A stretch of 11,273 bases of DNA from a virus: the IMG/VR virus record IMGVR_UViG_3300045988_083849, positions 1 to 11,273 of that record; one strand, 5' to 3'. The translations under genes were made by a program, and so were the position numbers. Below the pieces are notes generated by a model. The model did no database searches and was not told the DNA's origin. It was given only the letters and a program-made list of their open reading frames with translations. This document shows positions 1 to 11,273 of this stretch, one piece after another; positions within the stretch are counted from its first letter, which is position 1; each line of letters opens with the position of its first letter.

Positions 1-14
1 ATGCACAACTCCCC

Positions 15-46
15 CATTTTTAACATTTCCCAACACATTTTTAACA
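15..46 (+). repeat. Two phased direct repeats CATTTTTAACA inside the left ITR (15-25 and 36-46)
   Basis: Identical 11-mers whose starts are 21 nt apart, about two helical turns. Mirrored in the right ITR. Confidence 0.85.
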
Positions 47-59
47 GTCGCCAACATAG

Positions 60-80
60 TTTGGCACGCTTTTTGCATAG
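60..80 (+). promoter_or_regulatory. Sigma-54-type -24/-12 box (TTTGGCACGCTtTTTGCATAG), left ITR copy, pointing inward (rightward)
   Basis: Core at 62-77 is TGGCACG-cttt-TTGCA, an exact match to TGGCACG-N4-TTGCW. GG (63-64) and GC (75-76) are 12 nt apart. Confidence 0.55.
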
Positions 81-103
81 GCCGCGCCAAACCTCCACGA
101 AGA

Positions 104-143
104 AACAAAAAAAATAGCGTACCAAAATAGTTTGGCACGCTAT
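104..143 (-). terminator. Intrinsic terminator after the last (tail) gene
   Basis: On the minus strand, 12 nt after the TAG stop (156-158): AUAGCGUGCC (143-134), a 10-nt loop, then GGUACGCUAU (123-114). This is a 10-bp stem with one G:U pair, followed by U7 (plus-strand A-run 107-113). Confidence 0.75.
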
Positions 144-151
144 TTGCATAG
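131..151 (+). promoter_or_regulatory. Second sigma-54-type box (TTTGGCACGCTaTTTGCATAG), left subterminal, outside the perfect ITR
   Basis: Core at 133-148 is TGGCACG-ctat-TTGCA. It is the same 21-mer as the ITR copy except for one spacer base. It overlaps the 5-prime arm of the minus-strand terminator hairpin (134-143). Confidence 0.5.
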
Positions 152-155
152 GCCT

Positions 156-1979
156 CTAATCTATAAATACACCGCTTTGCAATAAATTAACAATTTCGGT
201 GTACTCGCTTTTCGGCACGTTGTCTATATCATTATTTACAATCTCATCAAATTTGTAAAAACCTTTTGCACATTGCGAAAGTACAACCTTTTTGTAGTCA
301 TTGCCGCGTCCACCGCTGTACTCATTTGTAAAGTAATTCAGCCGCACAAACGGCTCAAGTCCATACAAATTTTGTGCGTCCCACCTGTCACTACCTATTA
401 CGCTTGTGTCGTAAGTCGTGTAAAGTACATCCGTATTAGGTTGTACGTTATGCAATTGTATAGGTAAATCGTTATTATCCAATAATTTACAAACCCCGTC
501 ACCGCTAATTACATTTATATCGTACACCAATTTTACAGATTTACCGACATAATCAGAAGACAAACTAACAATACCCACGAACGGCAAAAATACCTCGATT
601 ATCATATTTTTGTCAAGTGTGGTATTATCTTTGCGCGGTATTGTGATACTACCGAAGTCAAGCGTTATTATATCCTTTTCGGGTAACTCTGCGTTTATTT
701 CTGTGTCGTAGTTGCCGCATTTTATTCGGTCCGTGCCTTTAGTAGGTATGTTCGTATAAATACGCTTAATGCGGTTAATATATTCGCTCAAATCTTGCTC
801 GTAAGTTATAAAAGTGCCGCTTTCTGTGAAGTACCGTTTTTTACTAAAAGCGTCAAGGTTATCCAACGTAACTACATACACATTTATAGACCCATAGTTT
901 TTAATGGTCGGTGTTACCTCAACTTGCGCCCCTCCACGAAATTCGATGTACTCAGTTTTGGGGCATTCGGTTGCGATGTCAAGTGTAACACTACCTTGCT
1001 TTTTATCCTCGCTAATAGTGAAACGTTTGTATTGTACACCTCCAAAATCGTCCGTGTATCTTATTTCGGGGGGGTCGGTCTCGCTTGTAAACTTGCTACC
1101 CTCATTTGCTTGTATTGTAACGTTTACTTTGTCGGTCGGGGTGTAATATGTGGGTATATTTTCGGCATTACAATTATATAGGGTATTTTTAACGGGTATG
1201 GCCTTAATATAAGTACCATTAATAACCACGGACACAGAAGTATCTACATTTGTTATTGCTATGGTTGCGGTGTCGCTGCTTTGTATGGTCATATCCTCGG
1301 TATGTGAGACACCGCTTGTATCTGTGTAGGTAACGTTGGCCGCTCGTATAACATAGTCGCTGTTTGTACCTTTTAGTGTTATGTTGAAAGTGCCATTATC
1401 GTAGATATATGTAGCGTTTGTGCCGTCTATGTTATTTGTTATTGTAATCGTTGGCGTACTCTCGGCAACCTCCCCGTTAAGTGTAAAAGCACTATTTTTT
1501 GCAGCGTCATCTATGGTAAAAGTAGCCTTGCTTTTGTCAGTGCTTACTACCCCGTTAGCGGTCGAAGTACCGCCAAAGCTATCAGTGTACACACAAGTAG
1601 GCGCAACATTGAATTGATACCCCGTATCAGCGGTAACTACAATGGTATGTACGCCACCGCTCGCTCTATACGTATAGGTAGTGTTTACTATATTGTTTGT
1701 TATCGTTGGTTCTGCGGGGGCGTCGGGGTCTACCTTAGTTGCACCCGTTAAACGTATATTTGTACCGCTAACACCGCTAAAGTTACACGTTTTTAGGTCT
1801 GTAGATACTTTGCCCTTAATACTGCCCCCTCCAAAATCATCATCAAAACGGGCGCGAGGTGTAGTTGCGGTATCAAACAAAAAACCCGTGTCAGCGGTGC
1901 TTATGATATTATACGCACCCACACTCTCAGTATATGTAAATGTAGTGTGCGGTATTTGGTTTGTTATTATATCTGCCAT
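156..1979 (-). CDS. Distal tail / receptor-binding protein. N-terminal four tandem ~85-aa Ig-like repeats, C-terminal ~250 aa resembling the C-terminal part of the phi29 gp9 tail knob
   Basis: 607-aa ORF and the last gene of the structural block. Internal repeats each begin with (TP)TI(T/K)N and each carry a YTDxFGG-like motif (aa ~45, ~130, ~217, ~307). The C-terminal end GFYKFDEIVNNDIDNVPKSEYTEIVNLLQSGVFI resembles, from memory, the gp9 C-terminus ([34 protein letters not shown]). Confidence 0.6.
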   Translation of the reverse strand: MADIITNQIPHTTFTYTESVGAYNIISTADTGFLFDTATTPRARFDDDFGGGSIKGKVSTDLKTCNFSGVSGTNIRLTGATKVDPDAPAEPTITNNIVNTTYTYRASGGVHTIVVTADTGYQFNVAPTCVYTDSFGGTSTANGVVSTDKSKATFTIDDAAKNSAFTLNGEVAESTPTITITNNIDGTNATYIYDNGTFNITLKGTNSDYVIRAANVTYTDTSGVSHTEDMTIQSSDTATIAITNVDTSVSVVINGTYIKAIPVKNTLYNCNAENIPTYYTPTDKVNVTIQANEGSKFTSETDPPEIRYTDDFGGVQYKRFTISEDKKQGSVTLDIATECPKTEYIEFRGGAQVEVTPTIKNYGSINVYVVTLDNLDAFSKKRYFTESGTFITYEQDLSEYINRIKRIYTNIPTKGTDRIKCGNYDTEINAELPEKDIITLDFGSITIPRKDNTTLDKNMIIEVFLPFVGIVSLSSDYVGKSVKLVYDINVISGDGVCKLLDNNDLPIQLHNVQPNTDVLYTTYDTSVIGSDRWDAQNLYGLEPFVRLNYFTNEYSGGRGNDYKKVVLSQCAKGFYKFDEIVNNDIDNVPKSEYTEIVNLLQSGVFID

Positions 1980-1980
1980 A

Positions 1981-2421
1981 CTATTTATTGCCTTTGAGTG
2001 TTACCATTATAATACTACCCTCTTTGTCAAATAGTTGTGAGTTTGGAAAGTGTAAAATATCAGTTTGCGGAAAAACGTTGAACACGTTACTATTTACTGA
2101 CAAATCTCGGTTTGCGTTGTCGCTCTCCACAATTAGGGCCGTACTTTGTAGTATTACATCTTTGTACGTCTGTAGTACATCAAGCGACAAAGTAAGTAAA
2201 TACGTTTGCCCTCCTAAATACCTAAAGTTGTCTACAAAGTAGTACTTTCCGAAATCCTCAATGTACACGTAATTAAACCCATACATATTAGGGGGCATTT
2301 GTATTTTTAGCGTTGGATTATGTACGTTAAGTTCGGGACGCAAAGCAACGTTAATTGTACCCAATTGTGTAAGTGCTTTGTTTATGGTGTTAGGTTGTCC
2401 CTTATAGTTATATAATATCAT
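1981..2421 (-). CDS. Tail knob N-terminal-domain-like protein (phi29 gp9 N-terminus-like)
   Basis: 146-aa ORF immediately after the MCP terminator. NYVYIEDFGKYYFVDNF...LSLDVLQTYKDV resembles, from memory, gp9 YIMFQNADYGNKWFYAFV...EIDVLQTWMFD. The TAG stop is followed by one nt and then the ATG of the 607-aa ORF. Confidence 0.45.
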   Translation of the reverse strand: MILYNYKGQPNTINKALTQLGTINVALRPELNVHNPTLKIQMPPNMYGFNYVYIEDFGKYYFVDNFRYLGGQTYLLTLSLDVLQTYKDVILQSTALIVESDNANRDLSVNSNVFNVFPQTDILHFPNSQLFDKEGSIIMVTLKGNK

Positions 2422-2426
2422 AGCGT

Positions 2427-2461
2427 TAAATTAAAAAAGGTGATGTATATTACACCACCTT
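2427..2461 (-). terminator. Intrinsic terminator directly downstream of the major capsid gene
   Basis: Minus strand: AAGGUGGUGUA (2461-2451), loop AUA, UACAUCACCUU (2447-2437). This is an 11-bp stem with one G:U pair, followed by UUUUAAUUUA. It starts 20 nt after the MCP stop. Confidence 0.75.
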
Positions 2462-2481
2462 AATACAACAATATTAACTAA

Positions 2482-3651
2482 TTAAGCAACAAAGAAAACT
2501 ACAAAGTTTTCGTTAGTATCATTGTAGTAGCCTGCATCAAACTTGTAGTAATTGTTGAAGAACTCGGCTTTTGCATTATAGTTAGTAGTTACGCGTCGGT
2601 TGAGGTTACAAACGCCTAACGCGTCCCTATCAAACATAACACCTAATACGCCGCTAATATCAACTGGTTTTCCTCCCGTCTCCTTGATTGTTATGTGTGC
2701 TGTGCTTGCAAAGTCGTACTTAGTACCGCTACCCTGCCAAAATGGGACACTTTCCGCGTTAGGTAAAAGTACCTGCTCTTTGTTGTACGTATCGCTGTAC
2801 AAGTAAGCACGCGCGGCCTTTTCAAAGTCTGACAACAATACAACGTGCAAGTTTTCGCGCGGTGTAAAGCGTGGCTTACCTCCAATGTTGAATACGTTTG
2901 AAATGCTTGCAAGTCTATCAGTGTACAAACCAATCGTGTAACTTGCAAACTTGATAAAATCGGGGTCTGTCAGTGCCTTTGCAGCGGTCAAAGTAGTACC
3001 TTTGTTATCGTTGTACAACTTTAGCAAGTTAACGCAACGCGCTGTACTTGCACTTGTGTAGTCGGGTGATTCACCACCAAAGGCCGATTTATCAGCTATT
3101 AAAGTTTGCGCTATCATGTTATTGATAGTACGCATTATTAACGCGTCCGTCTTAATGGTTATAGACTTTTCGACCGCGTTGTATATCATCGACAAAAATG
3201 CGTTTAGTTGCTCAGAGCTGCTGAATGACTCTTTAACTTGTCGCTCGGTTATAGAAACGGGTACCTCGAAAGTTACCTTAGAATTAAAGAACTTTGCCGT
3301 AACTTGCGGCTTGTGGAATACATCTTGCGAGTAGTCAGTACCGTCCGTTAGCTCCCAACTTTTATTCTCTTCGGCTTCTGGTAAGTCCGCGCTAATCTTT
3401 TCCAGGACGCTTCCGAACTCCCACGCGTCCATAAGTACAGACGGAATTTTACCTGCGTAGGGGCGATTGACAAAAACCACTTTGCCAATGTGGTTAACAA
3501 GTGATTTTACGTAATTGTCCACTGCATTTTGGTTAAAGACTTCGTTTCCGAGGTCGACCAACCCAGTTAAATCCTCTTTAACAAGTTCCGATTTTCCCAA
3601 AACCTCTTGTGATACGGAATTTATCAGATTGTAAATTTGTTTTACTTGCAT
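2482..3651 (-). CDS. Major capsid protein (HK97-fold, phi29 gp8-like core without the Ig-like C-terminal domain)
   Basis: 389-aa ORF in the position expected for the MCP and followed by a strong terminator. Segments YVKSLVNHIGKVVFV, LNAFLSMIYNAVEKS and the C-terminal FFNNYYKFDAGYY...VVFFVA resemble phi29 gp8 blocks from memory (FITSLVDRIGLVVI, FESFVSSIINAIYNSAE, YWNYYYHVWQ...AVAFV). Confidence 0.8.
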   Translation of the reverse strand: MQVKQIYNLINSVSQEVLGKSELVKEDLTGLVDLGNEVFNQNAVDNYVKSLVNHIGKVVFVNRPYAGKIPSVLMDAWEFGSVLEKISADLPEAEENKSWELTDGTDYSQDVFHKPQVTAKFFNSKVTFEVPVSITERQVKESFSSSEQLNAFLSMIYNAVEKSITIKTDALIMRTINNMIAQTLIADKSAFGGESPDYTSASTARCVNLLKLYNDNKGTTLTAAKALTDPDFIKFASYTIGLYTDRLASISNVFNIGGKPRFTPRENLHVVLLSDFEKAARAYLYSDTYNKEQVLLPNAESVPFWQGSGTKYDFASTAHITIKETGGKPVDISGVLGVMFDRDALGVCNLNRRVTTNYNAKAEFFNNYYKFDAGYYNDTNENFVVFFVA

Positions 3652-3652
3652 A

Positions 3653-4222
3653 TCAATAAATTAATTTAGTTATATCATTTATAATTGCAAAAATAATGCT
3701 TTTGCGCCAATTTTGCAAATTAAATTCAATTTCTTTTTTTAACTCGTCCGTTACTGATTTATTACCCAATCCTACAACCTTTTGTGTACTCGTCACGTTA
3801 TTAGTACGTGTATTGTCGTATGTGGTACTATCTTTGTCATACTCCACAAAATCAGTTGCGTTGTATGGTTTGTTAGACGCTACATTTGTATTGTTATTGT
3901 TGGCGTTTTCCGTGATATTGTCTTCGCGCGTTGTCTGCTGCTGTACTGGGTTAAGTACATCATATTGCGCATTGTAGGCACTCGCCACGCGTACCCAATT
4001 GTTAACACTCAACGCAATGATATTTTTTATATACTCGTTTGCGTTTGCTTGTGTTATGGTGTTTACGACCTCGCGCTCGCTGTAGTTGAGTAGTACCAAC
4101 GTATCAAGTCCCACGCTATCCATTTCGCCAAATATTGCATTGTATTCCGTGGGGAAATTATCCTTGAACACCTCCGTAAATAGGCCGTGTTTAGGGTCGG
4201 GGTATAGGTCAATTATTTTCAT
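3653..4222 (-). CDS. Structural protein of unknown role (candidate lower collar/adaptor or scaffold)
   Basis: 189 aa counted from the first ATG (4220-4222). This start overlaps the portal stop by 14 nt, and the stop lies 1 nt before the MCP ATG. It has helical-looking N- and C-terminal parts flanking an N/T/Q-rich central segment. The longer track ORF (to 4378) starts at GTG inside the portal repeat and is not favoured. Confidence 0.6.
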   Translation of the reverse strand: MKIIDLYPDPKHGLFTEVFKDNFPTEYNAIFGEMDSVGLDTLVLLNYSEREVVNTITQANANEYIKNIIALSVNNWVRVASAYNAQYDVLNPVQQQTTREDNITENANNNNTNVASNKPYNATDFVEYDKDSTTYDNTRTNNVTSTQKVVGLGNKSVTDELKKEIEFNLQNWRKSIIFAIINDITKLIY

Positions 4223-5186
4223 TTTCTTCTTCCTTTTCTTCGTCCGTTTCGGTTTCGGTTTCCGTTTCGTTGTCCGTTTCGGTGTCCGTTTCGGTGTCCG
4301 TTTCGGTGTCCGTTTCGGTTTCTGTTTCGGTTTTATTTTCTTCTTTGCGAATGGCCCAACTGCTTGCAAGTTCAACACTTATGTTTGTGCCAAACATAGC
4401 GTTTATCTTTTCTACTGCCTTTTTGCGCTCTTGTAGCATATTATCAACGTAGGGGTTTAGGGCGTCCACATTCATTTGCACTTCGGACGTGTTCAACCGC
4501 TCGCGCTTTAGGTTGTAGTTGGCATTCAACCCAATTTCGTTAAAGGCCGACGCCTTGAAGTATTGTAATAACTCAATGAGTTGCGTTATTTGGTTGGCGC
4601 TCTGCGTGGATATACTTTGCAAGTTGACGCCCTTAAAAAATGCGTTTTCACCAATTACGGAAAAATCGCCCTGCAAAATCTTTGTTATGAAATCGTCAGC
4701 GCTTTGTTTGGTCTTGTCATCGCTCGCACTTATTAACATAGTAATGCGAGAGAGTACCGAACATGTATTTAAAGACAAAAGCGTGTCACTACACAACACA
4801 CCATATTTGCCAAAGATTGGCAAAAGGCTATTTGCTCCACTATCGTTTTTAATTAGTACGCCCTCAACGCCTATTTTGTACGACTTGTTTAGTTGCAAAT
4901 ATGGGTTACTTACAATGTATTCTGTCGCCTCATTGTACGCGTTGGGAGTACCTCCAAAGCCGCCAGTAAAAGCGTACATTTTGCCGTCTACCTCAGTTAC
5001 AAAAACATTTCCGTTTGTCTGCAAAAGGTTTTCGAGATTGCTTTGTGGTAATGTTTCGGGCAAACCTTTATACACAAACATTGCCTGCGTTATAGCCAAC
5101 ATTTTTTTAATGTAGCCATTTACGCTTTTATCTTTGTTTTTTATTTGCTCTTGATACTTTATGTATAAGTTATCCTTCTTTGCCAT
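4209..5186 (-). CDS. Portal / head-tail connector (phi29 gp10-like) with a long acidic C-terminal tail
   Basis: 325 aa. MLAITQAMFVYKGLPETLPQSNLENLL, EIGLNANYNLKRERLNTSEVQ and RKKAVEKINAMFGTNISVEL parallel, from memory, phi29 gp10 blocks ([67 protein letters not shown]). Confidence 0.9.
   Translation of the reverse strand: MAKKDNLYIKYQEQIKNKDKSVNGYIKKMLAITQAMFVYKGLPETLPQSNLENLLQTNGNVFVTEVDGKMYAFTGGFGGTPNAYNEATEYIVSNPYLQLNKSYKIGVEGVLIKNDSGANSLLPIFGKYGVLCSDTLLSLNTCSVLSRITMLISASDDKTKQSADDFITKILQGDFSVIGENAFFKGVNLQSISTQSANQITQLIELLQYFKASAFNEIGLNANYNLKRERLNTSEVQMNVDALNPYVDNMLQERKKAVEKINAMFGTNISVELASSWAIRKEENKTETETETDTETDTETDTETDNETETETETDEEKEEENENN
4242..4333. repeat. Coding tandem repeat (hexamer-periodic; unit GTCCGTTTCGGT, four perfect tandem copies at 4272-4319 plus one at 4242-4253)
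   Basis: Read directly. In the portal frame (minus strand) it encodes TETETETDTETDTETDTETDNETETETETD. Confidence 0.95.
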
Positions 5187-5376
5187 TTGTCAAAGTTTTT
5201 ATAAGGGTGCTTAACTCACTTAGTACTTTGGTGTTATCCTCCAAAGTTGTACGTAAATTGTCGGTCTCCTCTTTGTGCTGCTCGTCGTGCTTTGTCATGT
5301 AGTAAAATACTATGAGACACATCGCGATAGGAAAACCAACGTTTGAAATCATTTGTGTAACTTGTGTAATATCCAT
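5170..5376 (-). CDS. Small single-pass membrane protein, YvrJ-like (SNVGFPI motif); candidate holin or lysis factor
   Basis: 68 aa. It has an N-terminal hydrophobic helix (ISNVGFPIAMCLIVFYYM) and then a charged helical tail. The ATG lies 20 nt downstream of a TAnnTTTG box. The stop overlaps the portal start by 17 nt. Confidence 0.6.
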   Translation of the reverse strand: MDITQVTQMISNVGFPIAMCLIVFYYMTKHDEQHKEETDNLRTTLEDNTKVLSELSTLIKTLTNGKEG

Positions 5377-5396
5377 TTTGTAAGGTTTTATTACTG

Positions 5397-5404
5397 CAAA
5401 TGTA
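5397..5404 (-). promoter_or_regulatory. Bacteroidota-type -7 promoter box (TACATTTG) ahead of the structural block
   Basis: The minus strand reads TACATTTGCAG, 20 nt upstream of the ATG at 5376, in the short gap after the ATPase stop (5411). There is a partial -33-like ATTG 20 nt further upstream. Confidence 0.5.
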
Positions 5405-5410
5405 CATAAA

Positions 5411-6541
5411 TTATTTTATACTTACAATGTTAGTTTTTGCAGAAGTCATTAAATAATTTCGTACAATTTCGCCAACCTCATTATTTTGGTAAAATACTTT
5501 GTCAGTGGCAAAGTACCGCGCAACTTGACTCTCTAAGTACGTTGCACTACTTATTAACTTGCGCTTGTAGTTTGGTTTTCCGTTCATTTGTAGGCTGTAT
5601 ATTAGTGAGTTTTCGGGGTCTTTTATAGGGGTTGTCTTTGCGTGTATGTATGTAAAGTTTTCGTTTCCGTGCTGAATTATGTTGCCTTGCAAAATGTAAT
5701 CGTTAAAAACAATGTAATACACAAATAGCACGTCATTTGGTTTGTACTTCGTTGGCAAATGTGGATAGGCCGCCATTTCCCATTTGCCCCCTGTTATCAT
5801 TTCAAGATTTTGGTTATCAAAGCAAAAATACTTATTACTTGCTTTTTGTTTAACAATGTTACTGCAATACTCCACCGCTACTACTGCTCCATGCTGCCCA
5901 AACTTGTATATGTCAATCGTGCCTTGCTCCATGTTAGTTACTTGCTTCAAGCCCATCTCCGTAAAGTAGGGGCAAAACTTGTTTATTGTGTTACCAAGCA
6001 TAAATACTTTAACGTTGTCGCGCTGTCTTATTATGGTGCTTAACAAGTTCATATACAACATAAACTCATCAGGTAGGTAATACCTACGAGTTAAAAACTC
6101 ATCAAAAACTATTGTTGTAACATTGGGGTAACTGCTACTTTTTTCGTGCTCTTGCTCTGACAGACAAAAGCCATAGCAAAAAGGTGTAGTTTGTGGTACG
6201 TACTTCTTCTTTTCTGGGTCGTACTTTGCAAGATACCATTTGCCGCCTATATAAAAAACAGAGTTAAACTCTCCCTTTGTTATCTCTTCTATATAGCCAT
6301 TGGCTACATGGTTAGCAAACAGATTTTCAGCGCGTTTGCCGCGTAAATCCTCGCGCCAACGTCTTATATATGCCATTTGCTCGCCTGTTTGTATGTAACG
6401 TTTAATACCATACGCCAAAGTAGCGTATGTTTTGCCGTTTGAGCGTTCGCCAAATATTATGTTATAATCTGCCTTTTTGTTTAGGATATTGGCGAGGGAG
6501 TAAAATTTTATCGTTTCTTTTTTCGTGGTTTCTTTCTTCAT
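5411..6541 (-). CDS. DNA packaging (encapsidation) ATPase, phi29 gp16 family
   Basis: Walker A is GERSNGKT and Walker B is TTIVFDEF. SSSYPNVTTIVFDEF closely matches remembered phi29 gp16 YPNVSTIVFDEF. The start is set at the ATG at 6539-6541 (MKKETTKKE...), because the track's upstream ATG (6583) lies inside a 16-bp palindrome. Confidence 0.92.
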   Translation of the reverse strand: MKKETTKKETIKFYSLANILNKKADYNIIFGERSNGKTYATLAYGIKRYIQTGEQMAYIRRWREDLRGKRAENLFANHVANGYIEEITKGEFNSVFYIGGKWYLAKYDPEKKKYVPQTTPFCYGFCLSEQEHEKSSSYPNVTTIVFDEFLTRRYYLPDEFMLYMNLLSTIIRQRDNVKVFMLGNTINKFCPYFTEMGLKQVTNMEQGTIDIYKFGQHGAVVAVEYCSNIVKQKASNKYFCFDNQNLEMITGGKWEMAAYPHLPTKYKPNDVLFVYYIVFNDYILQGNIIQHGNENFTYIHAKTTPIKDPENSLIYSLQMNGKPNYKRKLISSATYLESQVARYFATDKVFYQNNEVGEIVRNYLMTSAKTNIVSIK

Positions 6542-6566
6542 TGTTTTAATTTTTAATTGTTTGAAT

Positions 6567-6582
6567 TGTTCCACGTGGAACA
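6567..6582. promoter_or_regulatory. Perfect 16-bp palindrome TGTTCCACGTGGAACA (candidate operator) between the polymerase and ATPase genes
   Basis: Read directly. It lies between the polymerase stop (6586-6588) and the ATPase ATG (6541). It is related to the two sites at 10225-10265. Confidence 0.6.
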
Positions 6583-6585
6583 TTT

Positions 6586-8772
6586 TTAATCTTTTAGTTT
6601 TATACCCTTTAGGTAATTAAGGTACATTACACTCAAAGATAGGTTGTAACTTGTTGGCTCTAAATGTACACCCGTGTTTTCGGCAAATGTACACTTTTTA
6701 CCTTGATAGTCGGTAACTTCACCCGTTATTTTGTAGTCTATGTACGTATGTATGTTTTTGCCCGTTGCTTCGCACGGAAACTCAAGATAATTCGTAAATG
6801 CGTTAAATATGTTGTCACCATACTTTTTACATAGGTATGGTATTGCAGCCTTTTTGTTTACACCGCTAATTGTCAAACTATATTCATAACTTTTGCCTCC
6901 TACGTTTAGCGCGTTTTCTTCTTGTATCATATAGCGCTTTGCTCCCAACGTCTTAAAACGTTTATATGTACCTTCGTAGTCCCAAACGCCTAATGTTTTA
7001 GTAACTCCCTTAATGGTTTCGGGTTCGCATTTGGCAAAGTCGATGTTATGATGTTTACACGCGGCATTTAATTTGTTATACACTACATTGTTATACATAT
7101 CAAAATACCTTTTGTGTGCTGCTGCGTTACGGAGTTTAATGCTGTCAGTATCGCTATAAATGTAATCTTGCTTTGCTTCGTAGATTGCAGTAAATAAATT
7201 GCGCCTTGCGTAGGCAGTCACAAAAACACCCCACGGGTAAAACAAAAAGCGGTTTTTGCTTTCGTTGTACTTTTGTAGCATTTCGGATTTTTCGCTGTCT
7301 GTAAATGTGTTTTCGTCCCATTGTCCATTGTACACAAATTCATCGCGCAAAGGGTTAGTAACACACATACCATAGCAAGAATTTAACATCTCTTTGCTAT
7401 TTAGATACTCCACTTCATTACCTCGCACGCCTTTTAATTTGGTTTTGTTTTCGTACAAATCCAAGATTGTACGTACAAATTCAGTTGGTAAATAGTCGGC
7501 CTTATAGCAATACATTGCACCGATACGGACACCGCCCCACGTGTAAAAGTTGCGTATTATGTTGTAGTCTATGTTAGTTATTGTAGTGGCTATCTTTGCA
7601 GCACAAACTAAACGTCCATTGTTTTCAACGTGGTTAACCTTGACAAAGCATTTGCTTACACTTATAGGGTTGTCCTGCAACTCTTTTGCAAAAATGTTTG
7701 TAAATTCCACGTCAAAGATACAAAGGTACTTACTTGTGTAGTATTTAAATTCTTTAATATCTCGAGGCTGTACCCTTACACCTTTCGACATCGGGAATTT
7801 TTCCGACACCATAACATAAGGGTAACTACTTGTAAAATCGTAACTTGCTACATCTTCACAAATTTCGTCTATATGGTTAGCGTTACCATGAGTATAGCCG
7901 CCACTAAACGCCCTTTGTAACATATTAAATTCATCCAATCCGTTGATAGTTAGTGAATGGATTAAATTTATACACTGCCAATTACGCGAGGTTTTGCCGT
8001 TTACCTTTTTACTTAACATCGCTTTGCGGCAATGTTTACGGACGTACCCCGTTTTTGTTAGGGGCAATCTTGTTATTAACTTGTTTTGCTCTAATTGCTC
8101 TTGTATGTAATTCATCACGATTTTTATATCATTTACGCAATAAAGCAACTCTTTCGGTGTTAACTCTGTTTGTGTATGTCGTATTTTGGTATAGTCCAAA
8201 TCTCCAACCATTTTTGCACACTTGTACGTTTGTAGTTGCTCGCCTAACTTTGCAAGGTTGTAGCCACTTAGTAAGTAACTACAACGGAACTCAATGCCTA
8301 TTGTTGTAGTTGCGTATAAGGGTTTGCGTAGGTCAATGCTGAAAACCTTTTCCCATTCAAATAAAGTACGAAGAAATTGAAATTCATAAGATAGATTGTG
8401 TATGTACACAATTAGTTTTTTTTTAGTGGATAACTCCAACGTTTTTGCTATCGTGTTACACATAGTTGTAAACTCGTCCCATGTTCTGCCTACTATTACG
8501 TACCCATTTATACCAAACTGCCACACGTACATAATAGCACATTTTTCCATTTTTACGCCTAATTTGGTGTACTGCTCGTATGTGTATGTGTTGCCGTCTT
8601 CGTATCTATAAAAGCTACTTACTTCAATATCAAAGGCACAAGGGACGTTGTAAAATTTACACCCCTTATTGTTGCCTATTACGTTTTTGTCATTTACGGC
8701 CAACTGCAAAATATCTTTTATGTCGGTTGCCTTATATATACCGCTGTGCTGTTCATATTGCACTTTTTTCAT
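6586..8772 (-). CDS. Protein-primed family-B DNA polymerase
   Basis: 728 aa. Exo I is CAFDIEVSS, Exo II is HNLSYEFQF and Exo III is YCVNDIKIV. Motif A is YDFTSSYPYVM, motif B is KEMLNSCYGM, motif C is YIYSDTDSIK and the KxY motif is GAKRYM. The genome has ITRs and the upstream gene overlaps by ATGA. Confidence 0.96.
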   Translation of the reverse strand: MKKVQYEQHSGIYKATDIKDILQLAVNDKNVIGNNKGCKFYNVPCAFDIEVSSFYRYEDGNTYTYEQYTKLGVKMEKCAIMYVWQFGINGYVIVGRTWDEFTTMCNTIAKTLELSTKKKLIVYIHNLSYEFQFLRTLFEWEKVFSIDLRKPLYATTTIGIEFRCSYLLSGYNLAKLGEQLQTYKCAKMVGDLDYTKIRHTQTELTPKELLYCVNDIKIVMNYIQEQLEQNKLITRLPLTKTGYVRKHCRKAMLSKKVNGKTSRNWQCINLIHSLTINGLDEFNMLQRAFSGGYTHGNANHIDEICEDVASYDFTSSYPYVMVSEKFPMSKGVRVQPRDIKEFKYYTSKYLCIFDVEFTNIFAKELQDNPISVSKCFVKVNHVENNGRLVCAAKIATTITNIDYNIIRNFYTWGGVRIGAMYCYKADYLPTEFVRTILDLYENKTKLKGVRGNEVEYLNSKEMLNSCYGMCVTNPLRDEFVYNGQWDENTFTDSEKSEMLQKYNESKNRFLFYPWGVFVTAYARRNLFTAIYEAKQDYIYSDTDSIKLRNAAAHKRYFDMYNNVVYNKLNAACKHHNIDFAKCEPETIKGVTKTLGVWDYEGTYKRFKTLGAKRYMIQEENALNVGGKSYEYSLTISGVNKKAAIPYLCKKYGDNIFNAFTNYLEFPCEATGKNIHTYIDYKITGEVTDYQGKKCTFAENTGVHLEPTSYNLSLSVMYLNYLKGIKLKD

Positions 8773-9407
8773 AATCCGAAGTTATTAAATTCTTCTAATA
8801 TGCTATTTATTTCACTTTCTACTTCGTTCGTTAGTTTGTTGGCTTCGCTCTCGATATTGCTATCTATGGCGTTTTGTAGGCTTACCGCTTCACTCTCAAT
8901 TTGTTCGCTCGCGTCCCTTGCGCTTTGCTCCAAATCTCCAGTAAAATCTTTATACTTCATTAGGTACTTTTCCACAAAATCGCTATCGCTTAAACTTGTT
9001 ATCTTTTCGTTTAATTTGTCTGCCATTAAATTAAATTCTTTATCTGTAAGGCCGTAGGCGGTTTTTAGATGTTCGTTGTACGCTCTTGTGCCTTGAGCTG
9101 TACTCGTAGGCTGACGCAAAAAAGATACTGCCTTTGCGTACTCTATTTTTATCTCGTCCCAACTTTGGTCTCTAACAGAAAATTTGCTAAAGACTTTAAT
9201 ATCTCCTTTGTTTAAGGCAGTTACCGCGGGGCTTAATAAACCTTTGTCTTCAATGTTTTGTATTCTTCGGTTGGCCTGTTGAAATACGCGTCTTACTTCC
9301 TTTCTTAATTCGGGGCTACTTTCAACGCTTTGTATAATATCTTGTCGTAACTCGGCGCGTTGCGTTGCCGTAAATACGCTTTGTTTGTATCCTATCTTGT
9401 TAGGCAT
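8769..9407 (-). CDS. Candidate terminal protein (replication primer)
   Basis: 212 aa. It sits immediately upstream of the polymerase and is translationally coupled to it (ATGA overlap), as gene 3 and gene 2 are arranged in phi29. The N-terminus is basic and the C-terminal third is acidic, Ser-rich and helical. There is a weak remembered resemblance around SFLRQPTSTAQGTRAYNEHLKTAYG (phi29 TP SFTNRANMRYQFEKNAYG). Confidence 0.5.
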   Translation of the reverse strand: MPNKIGYKQSVFTATQRAELRQDIIQSVESSPELRKEVRRVFQQANRRIQNIEDKGLLSPAVTALNKGDIKVFSKFSVRDQSWDEIKIEYAKAVSFLRQPTSTAQGTRAYNEHLKTAYGLTDKEFNLMADKLNEKITSLSDSDFVEKYLMKYKDFTGDLEQSARDASEQIESEAVSLQNAIDSNIESEANKLTNEVESEINSILEEFNNFGL

Positions 9408-9452
9408 AACTATAAAATTAAAATAGGTAGGTAGTTATATGCTACCTACCTA
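9408..9452 (-). terminator. Intrinsic terminator or attenuator between the early ORFs and the replication genes
   Basis: Minus strand: UAGGUAGGUAG (9452-9442), loop CAUAUAA, CUACCUACCUA (9434-9424). This is a perfect 11-bp stem followed by UUUUUAAUUUUAUAGUU, which runs straight into the ATG at 9407. Confidence 0.65.
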
Positions 9453-9465
9453 ATTGTGTTACTTG

Positions 9466-9819
9466 TTAGATGTCTTTAAAAATAATAGTGTGACAGTCGC
9501 GGCCGTGGCTCTCGTACTTTCGCACTACAAAACCAACTTTTCCGTTTTTGATGTCATTTACCGCGTCCGTGTTATTTACAACGTCATTAAATACCTTGGT
9601 TAGGTATGTAGGAATATCCACGCGCTTTTTAACGTCTGACATCACCACAACTACTTTTACGCCAAACTTACCGCGCGTAAAATAAAAGCCGTCTAACGCG
9701 TGTACCTTATTAGGGTCGGCGTTGTATAACTCTTTAAGGCTCGTAAAGTCGTAGCCTTTAAGGTCAAACTTAAAAGGGTTTTCATTTCCCTTATTGTACT
9801 TTTCTGCAAAACTTGTCAT
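9466..9819 (-). CDS. Early protein of unknown function (positional candidate for an ssDNA-binding protein)
   Basis: 117-aa ORF with an ATG start, upstream of the TP-polymerase pair where phi29 encodes its SSB. I recognise no diagnostic motif. Confidence 0.6.
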   Translation of the reverse strand: MTSFAEKYNKGNENPFKFDLKGYDFTSLKELYNADPNKVHALDGFYFTRGKFGVKVVVVMSDVKKRVDIPTYLTKVFNDVVNNTDAVNDIKNGKVGFVVRKYESHGRDCHTIIFKDI

Positions 9820-9830
9820 AACTCAAGATG

Positions 9831-10001
9831 TTAATTGTTGGTGTTGTGTTCGTTTCCTAAAGACTCCAAAAAGTTTCTAAACTTCGAGATTTTAAGGAGT
9901 GTGCGAGTGTTCGCGTTAATCTCTTTGGTTGTCATAAGTTGGCCTAATGATGTAAAAGCTGTAAAAATCGCTTCATCAAAAACGTTTCTTTCTTCGTTCA
10001 T
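9831..10001 (-). CDS. Small early ORF not in the supplied track (56 aa: MNEERNVFDEAIFTAFTSLGQLMTTKEINANTRTLLKISKFRNFLESLGNEHNTNN)
   Basis: Translated by hand. Its ATG (9999-10001) overlaps the TGA (9998-10000) of the upstream ORF as ATGA. It fills an otherwise empty 178-nt gap in a gene-dense genome. Confidence 0.55.
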   Translation of the reverse strand: MNEERNVFDEAIFTAFTSLGQLMTTKEINANTRTLLKISKFRNFLESLGNEHNTNN

Positions 10002-10207
10002 TTCTTTGTGTATTTTAGTAGTGTGTTGTGGTTAATGTGGGTTGTGTCGGTAGTTACAATTGTTGTACGGCCGTTAATGTCGGTCTGTCGGTACATTGAG
10101 CAACTTTGCAAAGCCATGCAAAGGCCGTAAAGCACAGAAACCAATACAAGCACGTAAGAGGTGCAAAAAAGAAATGTACCCACTTTCTTTAAAATCTTAT
10201 TTTTCAT
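9998..10207 (-). CDS. Small lipoprotein-like or membrane-anchored early protein (69 aa from the ATG at 10207)
   Basis: MKNKILKK is followed by a long hydrophobic stretch, then LQSC (lipobox-like L-x-S-C), then a ~34-aa polar T/N-rich mature part. The track's longer version starts at a GTG (10256-10258) inside a palindrome. Confidence 0.55.
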   Translation of the reverse strand: MKNKILKKVGTFLFCTSYVLVLVSVLYGLCMALQSCSMYRQTDINGRTTIVTTDTTHINHNTLLKYTKK

Positions 10208-10224
10208 TTCGTTTGTTGGTTTTT

Positions 10225-10265
10225 TGTTCCACGTTAAACAATTTGTATTTTGTTTCACGTGAAAC
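10225..10265. promoter_or_regulatory. Pair of CACGT-centred operator-like sites: TGTTCCACGTTAAACA (10225-10240) and the perfect palindrome GTTTCACGTGAAAC (10252-10265)
   Basis: Read directly. The site centres are 26 nt apart, and the sites lie 18-58 nt upstream of the ATG at 10207. They fit the same consensus (TGTTYCACGTGRAACA) as the 6567-6582 palindrome. Confidence 0.55.
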
Positions 10266-10281
10266 GTTATATAATAGGGTT

Positions 10282-10533
10282 CTAAACTCGCTTCATAAAA
10301 CGCTCCATGTAGAAGTTATTGGCGCTGTTTCGCTCGATATCTTTCATTTGCGAGTTTTCGCGCGCCTTTATTTCTGTACTTATATTGTCTACTAAAGTAG
10401 CCAAATTACCTAACGTTGTCGCAGAATCGAAAAGTAATTGAGATTTGTTACGTTCTGCTTCATACTCGAGATTGTTACGAGTTACGCGCAAAATACGTGC
10501 AATCTCATCGTACATTTGTGGGGTTGTCGCCAT
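10282..10533 (-). CDS. Early protein of unknown function (83 aa, predicted helical)
   Basis: ORF with an ATG start on the coding strand and no overlap with other genes. No motif recognised. Confidence 0.55.
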   Translation of the reverse strand: MATTPQMYDEIARILRVTRNNLEYEAERNKSQLLFDSATTLGNLATLVDNISTEIKARENSQMKDIERNSANNFYMERFMKRV

Positions 10534-10551
10534 TTTTTCGTTTTGTTTGTT

Positions 10552-10572
10552 GCCCCACTGGTTGAGTGGGGC
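10552..10572. other. GC-rich hairpin GCCCCAC-(7 nt)-GTGGGGC between two early ORFs
   Basis: Perfect 7-bp stem. On the coding (minus) strand it is followed by an A-rich rather than a U-rich tract, so it is not a canonical terminator there. On the plus strand a short T-run follows after 6 nt. Confidence 0.4.
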
Positions 10573-10581
10573 GTTACCTTT

Positions 10582-10848
10582 TTAAAGTTCCCTTTCAGAT
10601 AGACAAACGCTATATAAAACGCGGTAGGTTGTCGGTTGTGGATTGTTGTCTGTACGCTCACCTACAAGCGTCAAACTATTCTCATAAGTAATTGTGTAGC
10701 ACTCTTCATTTAATAAGTCCTTCACACCCTTTAAGGCTGCTTTTACGGCCTTCAATGATTTATAAGGTGTATCGTTGTACAAAGTAGTTACTTTTGTTTC
10801 GTGGTTGTCATCGCTATTTGAGCGTGTAAAATAAATTTCGTACTTCAT
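10582..10848 (-). CDS. Early protein of unknown function (88 aa)
   Basis: ORF with an ATG start on the coding strand. No motif recognised. Confidence 0.55.
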   Translation of the reverse strand: MKYEIYFTRSNSDDNHETKVTTLYNDTPYKSLKAVKAALKGVKDLLNEECYTITYENSLTLVGERTDNNPQPTTYRVLYSVCLSEREL

Positions 10849-10894
10849 TGCTGTAATGTTTATTTTATACTTCTAATTATTGCAAACGCACCTT

Positions 10895-11023
10895 TTATTG
10901 TGGTGTATTTGTTATTCCATATTTCTTCAACGGCCTTAACTCTTTAGTTGTGAGATAAAGACCAACGAAACCGCGCCAATCGTTAAATTCACCTATGTTT
11001 TTTATTTTCTGAATGATTTCCAT
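10895..11023 (-). CDS. Possible first early ORF, not in the track (42 aa: MEIIQKIKNIGEFNDWRGFVGLYLTTKELRPLKKYGITNTPQ)
   Basis: Translated by hand. Its ATG lies 19 nt downstream of a TAnnTTTG box and it fills the only sizeable non-terminal gap. Being short, it is weakly supported. Confidence 0.35.
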   Translation of the reverse strand: MEIIQKIKNIGEFNDWRGFVGLYLTTKELRPLKKYGITNTPQ

Positions 11024-11042
11024 TTGTTTTATTTTGATATTG

Positions 11043-11074
11043 CAAAGGTAGTTACTTCGTGTACTATATGCAAA
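11043..11074 (-). promoter_or_regulatory. Bacteroidota-type promoter: -33 TTTG (11074-11071) and -7 TACCTTTG (11050-11043)
   Basis: The minus strand reads TTTG, then 20 nt, then TACCTTTGCAA, with the ATG (11023) 19 nt after the -7 box. The architecture matches the 5397-5404 box. Confidence 0.5.
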
Positions 11075-11120
11075 TTTTTAGTCTTAATAAATCTTAAAAT
11101 GGTATTTTTTTGTTTTGTGT

Positions 11121-11141
11121 CTATGCAAAGAGCGTGCCAAA
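11121..11141 (-). promoter_or_regulatory. Second sigma-54-type box, right subterminal, outside the perfect ITR, pointing leftward
   Basis: The minus strand reads TTTGGCACGCTcTTTGCATAG. TGGCACG is the complement of 11133-11139 and TTGCA the complement of 11124-11128. Predicted start is near 11113. Confidence 0.55.
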
Positions 11142-11193
11142 TTGTTTTGCGGTGAAGTGTTTTTTTTTATTGGATTTGGAGGTTTGGCGCGGC

Positions 11194-11214
11194 CTATGCA
11201 AAAAGCGTGCCAAA
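11194..11214 (-). promoter_or_regulatory. Sigma-54-type -24/-12 box, right ITR copy, pointing leftward in the direction of all genes
   Basis: The minus strand reads TTTGGCACGCTtTTTGCATAG. TGGCACG is the complement of 11206-11212 and TTGCA the complement of 11197-11201. Predicted start is near 11186. Confidence 0.55.
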
Positions 11215-11227
11215 CTATGTTGGCGAC

Positions 11228-11259
11228 TGTTAAAAATGTGTTGGGAAATGTTAAAAATG
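11228..11259 (-). repeat. Mirror copies of the CATTTTTAACA direct repeats in the right ITR (11228-11238 and 11249-11259)
   Basis: The plus strand reads TGTTAAAAATG twice, 21 nt apart. These are part of the perfect ITR. Confidence 0.85.
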
Positions 11260-11273
11260 GGGGAGTTGTGCAT

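Follow-up and report, generated by a model that had tools for sequence, protein, structure and literature searches.

A near-complete 11.3-kb genome of a human-gut podophage that probably falls among the Astrithrvirus-like minimal relatives of phi29

The stretch of DNA analysed here, called the window below, comprises the 11,273 nucleotides (nt) of the IMG/VR virus record IMGVR_UViG_3300045988_083849. We read it as the near-complete linear genome of an uncultured podophage of the human gut, belonging to the minimal relatives of phi29 that form the Astrithrvirus-like group, and we give this reading a probability of about 85%. The window has a GC content of 39% and carries 15 closely packed genes, about 94% of its length being coding. 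The original prediction of a complete, minimal, protein-primed podophage of the phi29 type is essentially borne out by the inverted terminal repeats (ITRs), the family-B DNA polymerase (PolB), the packaging ATPase, the portal and the major capsid protein (MCP). On the other hand, the group is already known and its members are equally small, which deflates the idea of a record-small phage and of a new lineage.

The conserved core and its place among known phages

A tblastn search of 50,697 phage records retrieved a coherent set of isolates, the PolB of which is 41–45% and the MCP, over its full length, 55–60% identical to those of the window. This set comprises the Salmonella phages Astrid (11,713 bp), astrithr (11,569 bp) and assan, Shigella vB_SHGBLB0004 (11,151 bp), Acinetobacter phage Aci01-2-Phanie, hereafter Phanie (11,885 bp; MCP 56% identical to that of the window), Pectobacterium DU_PP_III, Enterobacter Entb_47 and Vibrio K58 g2; these Astrithrvirus-like isolates are the MCP cluster 23 of Evseev et al. 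2024. BLASTP of every open reading frame (ORF) finds one-to-one counterparts between the core of the window and the isolates, in a common order: terminal protein (TP), PolB, ATPase, small transmembrane (TM) protein, portal, a protein of 190 or about 185 residues, MCP, a protein of about 146 residues, and tail protein. In the maps of the isolates a small ORF precedes this core and a protein of about 200 residues occupies the TP slot. The likeness extends to the format of the genome (11–12 kb with ITRs), to the ATPase (about 52% identical) and the portal (40–44%), and to the lack of appendage and head-fibre genes on both sides. The isolates nevertheless differ by a CHAP endolysin gene placed 3' of the tail gene, which the window lacks, and by leftward genes at the far end, whereas the early genes of the window all lie upstream of the TP gene, on the same strand; the window, besides, comes from a gut metagenome.

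Phi29-related phages of Gram-negative bacteria have been described with genomes of 11–14 kb, a putative TP, a single-stranded DNA-binding protein (SSB) and a tail knob distributed over two genes (PMC11476376), and the smallest tailed phages in isolation, at 11.6 kb, are said to be Astrid and astrithr (bioRxiv 10.1101/2025.06.18.659913). The window had been thought to lie at or below the smallest isolates in size; this cannot be retained, Astrithrvirus-like isolates of 11.15–11.9 kb being known since 2020 (PMC11476376). At the nucleotide level, megablast of the whole window against the same 50,697 records gave no match to any isolate, so that the window does not belong to the genus Astrithrvirus, though it does belong to the higher-level group of these phages: it adds to a known group an uncultured member that is new at the rank of genus or higher. 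That its close relatives are ordinary classified phages of this size, a possibility raised at the outset, largely holds at the level of the family, but not at that of the genus.

The group is well populated in metagenomes. A scan of IMG/VR with the MCP found 340 stretches encoding relatives, 80 loci of which were kept (L004–L083); nearly all of these are 10.6–12 kb long, and most have exact ITRs of 85–350 nt. Protein searches of the ENA and Logan assemblies added hundreds of relatives in the same size range, and the example relatives that were traced come from human gut metagenomes. The conservation of length and ITRs, proposed earlier as a check, thus holds across the gut clade for hundreds of contigs (IMG/VR, ENA, Logan, GTDB). 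The nearest relatives, L004 (IMGVR_UViG_3300045988_035343) and L005 (_035751), show a DNA identity of about 88% to the window along almost its entire length: they have the layout and the ITR of the window, and core replication and virion proteins 91–97% identical, but they fall below the 95% species threshold, and their tail protein and early genes vary. In GTDB, 64 relatives (L084–L147) occur as small stand-alone contigs in bins of metagenome-assembled genomes (MAGs), the labels of which read Prevotella, Melainabacteria, Staphylococcaceae, Methanobrevibacter, Elusimicrobiaceae and others; the isolate assembly Herbiconiux daphne CPCC 203386 also holds several fragments of the phage group. Since the MAG labels are mutually inconsistent, mis-binning or contamination of public genomes is likely.

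With phi29 itself (Salasmaviridae) the genome shares a protein-primed PolB, a gp16 ATPase, a gp10 portal and a gp8-type MCP, all detectable by sequence, as well as 5'-AAA termini and an SSB gene upstream of the TP and polymerase genes. The differences are numerous: phi29 has 19.3 kb, ITRs of 6 nt, and opposed early and late operons where the genes of the window lie on one strand; the knob gene is split in the window; and phi29 has a prohead RNA (pRNA), the scaffold gp7, a head fibre, the appendages gp12, gp13 and the endolysin gp15, none of which was found in the window. For the appendage, head-fibre and gp13-like genes this agrees with what had been anticipated, and comes from scans of Pfam and PHROGs.

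In the replication module, the polymerase had been correctly taken for protein-primed: it belongs to family B and is related to p2 of phi29, as it matches PF03175 (5e-14), phrog_1907 (3e-71) and, in a PDB sequence search, the phi29 DNA polymerase structure 1XHX (2.9e-11). The candidate TP is homologous to gp02 of astrithr and gp2 of Phanie, and the homologues of Astrid and Phanie have been called TPs by hidden Markov model (HMM) and HHpred searches (PMC11476376). Its position beside PolB and its homology to astrithr gp02 fit this designation, but a likeness to phi29 gp3 went undetected: hhalign of the profile of the 212-residue protein against gp3 was null, and the protein has no match in Pfam or PHROGs. 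The candidate TPs of the gut clades and the homologues of astrithr, Phanie and Vibrio K58 g2 all have an invariant T-S-T motif; Ser102 in this motif (codon 9102–9104) is a candidate for the priming residue linked to DNA. The product of o117 is, according to its AlphaFold2 model (pLDDT 86), an SSB: in BFVD, Foldseek places the SSB of JBug18, a phi29-like phage of Staphylococcus, at the top of the matches to the model (E 1.9e-8, TM-score 0.79), and weaker matches to SSBs of the OB fold, PRD1 P12 among them, appear in the PDB.

The packaging and capsid genes raise little doubt, since the gp16-type ATPase, gp10-type portal and phi29-type MCP, all three predicted, match PF05894, PF05352 and PF25622 above the curated cut-offs. 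The portal ends in an acidic, low-complexity (TETD)n tail encoded by a 12-nt tandem repeat (4216–4347); the portals of relatives also end in acidic tails, which differ in length and composition. The frame overlapping this repeat, open upstream of the 190-residue gene to a GTG at 4378, would encode a very basic (KRTP)n peptide, which the purine-rich repeat probably generates as a by-product. The 190-residue protein (p190) is probably a short lower collar or adaptor, though unproven, and its profile weakly matches phi29 gp11 in hhalign. For the 146-residue protein (p146), hhalign gives a weak, co-linear match to residues 91–130 of phi29 gp9. Taken together, the hhalign comparisons of the TP, p190, p146 and 607-residue tail profiles with phi29 gp3, gp11 and gp9 yielded no more than weak local hints, in co-linear places, and we do not count them as proof. 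The knob-like tail proteins foreseen earlier correspond to a split knob, p146 and the 607-residue tail protein (tail607), homologous to gp09 and gp10 of astrithr. A PDB sequence search with the profiles of o117, p190, tail607 and MCP gave nothing significant.

The AlphaFold2 model of tail607 shows four N-terminal Ig/FN3-like β-sandwich domains (residues 1–350, pLDDT about 90), in agreement with the description of Phanie gp10 with its Ig-like domains (PMC11476376); the C-terminal region, modelled with lower confidence, is the conserved knob part. Foldseek of this model against the PDB gave generic Ig/FN3 matches only, with no enzyme or knob match, and no enzyme domain was found in tail607. No other gene varies as much among the relatives (30–37% identity between subclades), as expected of a receptor-binding protein, which tail607 likely is. 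Direct DNA repeats in the tail gene (1039–1058, 1559–1594 and 1828–1847) mirror a D(D/S)FGG recurring in successive Ig-like domains; these repeats indicate a tandem duplication of domains.

No pRNA was recognised: Rfam at E<=10 gave two chance matches only, and the 267-nt leader at the gene-start end folds no better than its shuffles (z = 0.2). The pRNA being known only from phages of Bacillus, its absence neither includes the window among phi29-like phages nor excludes it.

Table 1. Features of the window, in order of position
Feature	Position	Strand	Remarks
Left ITR	1..97	.	Perfect, 97 nt; conserved blocks TTTTTAACATTTCCCAAC / TTTTTAACA and one sigma-54-like motif
Sigma-54-like motif TGGCACGCTTTTTGCA	62..77	+	Exact consensus match; inside ITR, inward
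15-bp hairpin with T-run	112..145	-	Directly after tail gene; putative terminator of long transcription unit
Sigma-54-like motif TGGCACGCTATTTGCA	133..148	+	Just outside perfect ITR, inward; overlaps hairpin after tail gene
Distal tail/knob protein (tail607)	156..1979	-	607 residues; homologous to astrithr gp10
p146	1981..2421	-	146 residues; homologous to astrithr gp09; N-part of phi29 gp9 knob (PMC11476376)
Hairpin with T-run	2437..2461	-	Terminator/attenuator-like; after MCP gene
MCP, Phi29_MCP family (HK97 fold)	2482..3651	-	389 residues; PF25622 4e-55
p190, virion-module protein	3653..4225	-	190 residues; homologous to astrithr gp07
Second Bacteroidota-type promoter match	3688..3719	-	About 70 nt upstream of MCP gene, inside coding sequence; conserved in window's clade
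Portal/upper collar, gp10-type	4209..5186	-	325 residues; PF05352 3e-15, 1FOU 2.7e-10; 1H5W also matched
Small protein with one TM segment	5170..5376	-	68 residues; PHROG holin family 1.8e-11; position conserved in Astrithrvirus isolates
Packaging ATPase, gp16-type	5411..6583	-	390 residues; PF05894 8e-23, 5HD9 2e-21; 7JQQ also matched
PolB	6586..8772	-	728 residues; motifs FDIE, YCVNDI, DFTSSYP, KEMLNSCYG, YSDTDS, KRY intact
Candidate TP	8769..9407	-	212 residues; ATGA overlap with PolB start
Hairpin with T-run, strong	9424..9452	-	Terminator-like; between SSB and TP genes
SSB (o117), predicted	9466..9819	-	Analogue of phi29 p5, by AlphaFold2 model and Foldseek
o56, conserved early protein	9831..10001	-	56 residues; conserved in relatives
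Small lipoprotein	9998..10207	-	69 residues; signal peptide and LQSC lipobox; ORF open upstream to 10258 (GTG)
o83, helical early protein	10282..10533	-	83 residues; homologue in sister clade at the other end
o88, accessory early ORF	10582..10848	-	88 residues; homologue in only some close relatives
o42	10895..11023	-	42 residues; doubtful, no homologue in relatives; indel region
Bacteroidota-type promoter	11043..11074	-	Match TTTG-N20-TACCTTTG; just upstream of first gene
Sigma-54-like motif TGGCACGCTCTTTGCA	11124..11139	-	Inward, in direction of gene array
Right ITR	11177..11273	.	Perfect, 97 nt; gene-start end of genome
Sigma-54-like motif	11197..11212	-	Inside right ITR, inward

Lysis, release and dependence on a helper

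The window encodes no recognisable endolysin, as had been noticed from its gene content. None of its proteins or reading frames matches a lysin family in Pfam or PHROGs, while the same searches, as a positive control, detect the CHAP endolysins of astrithr and Phanie (PF05257, phrog_21357); tblastn of three isolate lysins against the window and L004–L083 gave nothing significant. The product of o117, with its invariant His/His/Cys, was considered as a small lysin and rejected after its match to the SSB fold. Lysins are also absent in 79 of the 80 IMG/VR relatives, the sole exception being L014, which carries in the slot after the tail gene (10537–10938) an Amidase_2 domain (PF01510, 1e-16) that is not homologous to the CHAP lysin of the isolates. 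The absence of a muralytic enzyme is a consistent property of the ITR-bounded, apparently complete genomes of the clade.

Several ways of release may be considered: a holin acting with host autolysins, a single-gene lysis protein, lysis provided by a helper, or an unrecognised enzyme. The small TM protein, besides its holin match, weakly matches an Rz-like i-spanin family. The small lipoprotein belongs to a family in which an LQ[GS]C lipobox is found in 64 of the 65 members, with a mature part of about 38 residues and the motif ATIVTTDTT; possible roles for it are those of an o-spanin-like protein, of superinfection exclusion (cf. Llp of T5), or in lysis.

Lysis provided by a helper leads to a reading of the window different from ours, that of a helper-dependent, satellite-like podophage which, in the manner of Phanie, would have its own capsid and replication but need a co-infecting helper, also for lysis. 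Phanie, as the work of Pourcel et al. 2024 is summarised in PMC11476376, is non-infectious unless bound to the tail of the myophage Aci01-1, the contractile tail of this helper being needed for entry, and the same review suggests that the relatives of Phanie may behave alike. Phanie belongs to the group of the window, with the MCP identity given above, the same synteny, a long ITR (171 nt, against 97–101 nt in the window) and a split knob with an Ig-rich tail protein; besides, the lack of a muralytic enzyme is shared by the window and 79 of 80 gut relatives, and the gut clade is abundant in metagenomes, yet has given no isolate. On the other side, Salmonella phage Astrid is described as non-satellite (bioRxiv 10.1101/2025.06.18.659913), and Phanie keeps its endolysin, so that what is known of the satellite phenotype does not include losing the lysin; the lysis genes of Bacteroidota phages are, moreover, often unrecognisable. 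Phanie also differs from the window by its CHAP+CW_7 lysin and two leftward genes, and its helper dependence is experimental according to the same summary. On balance we hold the dependence on a helper to be unlikely.

A wider scenario, speculative and in our view unlikely, would make of the gut clade a Bacteroidota branch that dispensed with the hydrolase and exits either by exploiting a helper for lysis and entry, which would carry the hitch-hiking of Phanie into the human gut, or via a small membrane protein or lipoprotein (cf. the single-gene lysis proteins of microviruses and leviviruses), the sigma-54-like motifs of its ITRs, described below, serving as RpoN promoters or origin elements.

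Early genes, gene layout and host

Returning to the window as a member of the Astrithrvirus-like group, its gene layout sets it apart from the isolates. Every credible ORF lies on the minus strand and the gene order reads from 11273 down to 1; the single strand announced for all genes is thus right, provided that it is understood as the minus strand of the window. The tight junctions were also well seen: the genes of TP and PolB, and those named o86 and o56, overlap by 4 nt (ATGA), and several other gaps measure 1–2 nt. A 439-nt region with o42 and o88 (indel 10585–11023) is missing from L004 and L005 and variable in other relatives; because they lie inside it, these two ORFs are either accessory or not genes.

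At the far end, where Astrithrvirus isolates have two to four small leftward genes, the window has none, and its sister clade (GC 44%) exactly one, of about 117 residues. The profile of this family matches genes on the plus strand at the gene-start end (L012, L008, L015–L017 and others), and the iterative profile built from o83 gathers 66 members, which fall into two sets: 16 belong to the main strand and occupy the gene-start end, while the other 50 are encoded at the far end by the opposite strand. In either place the gene adjoins the ITR and points inward. In two relatives it lies inside both ITRs: L014 (314–607 and 10983–11276; ITR of 617 nt) and L057 (366–719 and 11967–12320; ITR of 1050 nt). 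These two genomes, if they are not mis-assemblies, are the intermediates expected of an end-to-end transfer by expansion of the ITR followed by a loss at one end. The one-strand layout is then a derived rearrangement, in which o83 was relocated most simply via the expansion and contraction of the ITR.

Derived within a known group, this layout is no mark of a separate lineage. This bears on the first interpretation of the window, according to which it may represent a lineage of tailed phages that is truly separate, of record smallness and outside every classified group. The isolates certainly give no match at the nucleotide level, the PolB is at most 41–45% identical to that of the nearest ones, the early-gene layout differs and the endolysin is absent; but the common core order and an MCP identity of 55–60% put the window with the Astrithrvirus-like phages, isolates of 11.15–11.9 kb exist, and many relatives are shorter, e.g. 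ITR-bounded contigs of 10.7–10.9 kb. We consider a distinct lineage improbable, and keep the window among the Astrithrvirus-like phages.

As to the host, we incline with moderate confidence to a member of the Bacteroidota, as suggested by the lack of Shine-Dalgarno motifs, the promoters, the gut origin and the GC content of 39%. Shine-Dalgarno-like motifs precede only 1 of 11 genes in the window and 0–1 of 10–12 in gut relatives, to be compared with 5–8 of 10–11 in the isolates infecting Proteobacteria. The pattern TTTG-N19-21-TAnnTTTG, of the Bacteroidota promoter type, has two matches on the coding strand against 0.45 expected, and both are positionally conserved in L004–L017, with spacers that vary. 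The labels of the GTDB bins were rejected as evidence of the host, as they go through unrelated taxa from Prevotella to Methanobrevibacter.

Genome ends and terminal motifs

Protein-primed linear replicons can be plasmids, and phi29-related sequences labelled as plasmids are noted in a review (PMC11476376); a linear plasmid or phage-plasmid persisting in its host would explain why the endolysin is absent. This is very improbable for the window, in which the full virion and packaging module makes up about 60% of the genome and the holin-like gene is kept, while genes for partition, toxin-antitoxin, integrase and repressor were not detected by the Pfam and PHROGs scans; the occurrences in GTDB, besides, are small stand-alone contigs in inconsistent MAG bins and not cultured isolates.

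The ITR fits the linear phage genome that we propose. The first 97 nt of the window are the reverse complement of the last 97, as predicted, and a perfect repeat of this length cannot arise by chance; beyond it, the likeness of the two ends reaches 114 nt at 94%. The relatives, linear with ITRs, have reiterated terminal bases, their ends being 5'-AAAT... or 5'-AAAG.... When the termini of both clades are aligned, over dozens of contigs assembled independently from different samples, the first 80 nt or so are conserved block by block.

By contrast, the assumption that the window is bounded exactly by the physical ends has to be given up, for relatives and an adapter fusion show that about 4 nt (AAAT) are missing at each end. 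Many contigs of the window's clade open with 5'-AAATATGCA, the start of relatives being also given as 5'-AAATATGCAC; their true ends read 5'-AAAT-ATGCAC, and the window opens at ATGCAC. At the right end of L015 an Illumina adapter (…CTCTTCCGATCT) is joined directly to AAATATGCA, and a like fusion is found in L066, L072 and L082 of the sister clade, the terminus of which is 5'-AAAGGTACGC. Such fusions mark physical DNA ends. As the window is 4 nt short on each side, the real genome has about 11,281 bp and an ITR of 101 nt. Adapter or Nextera sequence is still present at the ends of several IMG/VR contigs, e.g. L055, L075, L009, L024 and L070. A 50-residue ORF running from the contig end (11121–11273) was rejected: it falls within the ITR, and all promoters are downstream of it.

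That the window is an assembly artefact, its ITR made by fold-back or the whole a fragment or chimera of a larger genome, is hardly credible: a few relatives do have suspiciously long ITRs (L014, and L057 with a reversed fragment of the tail gene) and several public contigs have kept adapter sequence, but the terminal conservation across independent contigs of two clades, the adapter fusions, which in several contigs fall on one and the same terminal nucleotide, and the ITR of 171 nt in the isolate Phanie argue strongly against it, as do a complete gene content syntenic with the isolates and the tight clustering of the relatives at 10.6–12 kb.

Within this near-complete genome of the Astrithrvirus-like group, the ends carry a further feature. 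The -24/-12 consensus of sigma-54 promoters is TGGCAC-N5-TTGCW. Each end of the window has two copies of a 33-nt repeat containing TGGCACG-N4-TTGCA, which makes four exact matches to the consensus, all inward and all within 150 nt of an end (<=150 nt), against 0.38 expected with one mismatch allowed. All through the gut clade, each end bears 2–4 inward copies of the motif, which is invariant in the terminal alignment; a scan of three isolate genomes (those of astrithr, Phanie and Vibrio K58 g2) found none. The outermost copy has no more than about 60 nt upstream of it, the Pfam and PHROGs scans found no sigma-54 activator encoded in the window, and a literature search on sigma-54-dependent phage promoters gave nothing relevant. 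To our knowledge, RpoN-dependent promoters or origin elements in terminal repeats would be very unusual for a phage. The motif could be a sigma-54 promoter or, equally, an element that both ends require as an origin or for the binding of a protein. In the sister clade (L018–L083) a conserved palindrome, GGTTYGGCACGAAATTTGCACCAAACC, which matches GGCAC-N5-TTGC, is found at about 5200–5400, between the ATPase and holin-like genes, where the window has no equivalent.

Several points weigh against our reading of the window as a whole. The TP is assigned by position, by homology to gp02 with conservation throughout the family and by published HMM claims, only, and remains a candidate given the null alignment to gp3. 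The roles of p190 and p146 come from weak profile matches and from the literature (PMC11476376), consistent with each other but proving nothing. As no pRNA was found, the motor that packages the DNA may not be the same as in phi29, and the absence of a lysin leaves the mechanism of release unexplained. The assignment of the host is indirect, and the MAG bins of relatives carry inconsistent taxon labels. Finally, the long ITRs of L014 and L057, which we used as intermediates, could be artefacts of assembly.

If the window is nevertheless such a podophage genome, its cycle might be sketched as follows. The 212-residue protein would prime replication at both ends. Initiation in phi29 proceeds by sliding-back; the 5'-AAA ends fit this type of initiation and would permit it here, the SSB coating the displaced strands. 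Transcription would set out from the gene-start end and traverse the entire array, with hairpins inside it and a promoter ahead of the MCP gene. The ATPase would then drive unit-length DNA bearing the TP through the portal, filling a small capsid, of about T=3 judging from the length of the genome.

The window leaves the known lower size limit of tailed phages unchanged; it documents a well-sampled, uncultured branch, in the human gut, of the smallest tailed phages known. If the prediction of the host is true, the Astrithrvirus-like group extends from Proteobacteria to Bacteroidota. The family of o83 offers a clean natural example of a gene that moved between the ends of a linear protein-primed genome. 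The motif of the ITR raises the question of how such a phage is transcribed or replicated, and the absence of a lysin that of how a tailed phage of 11 kb exits its host.

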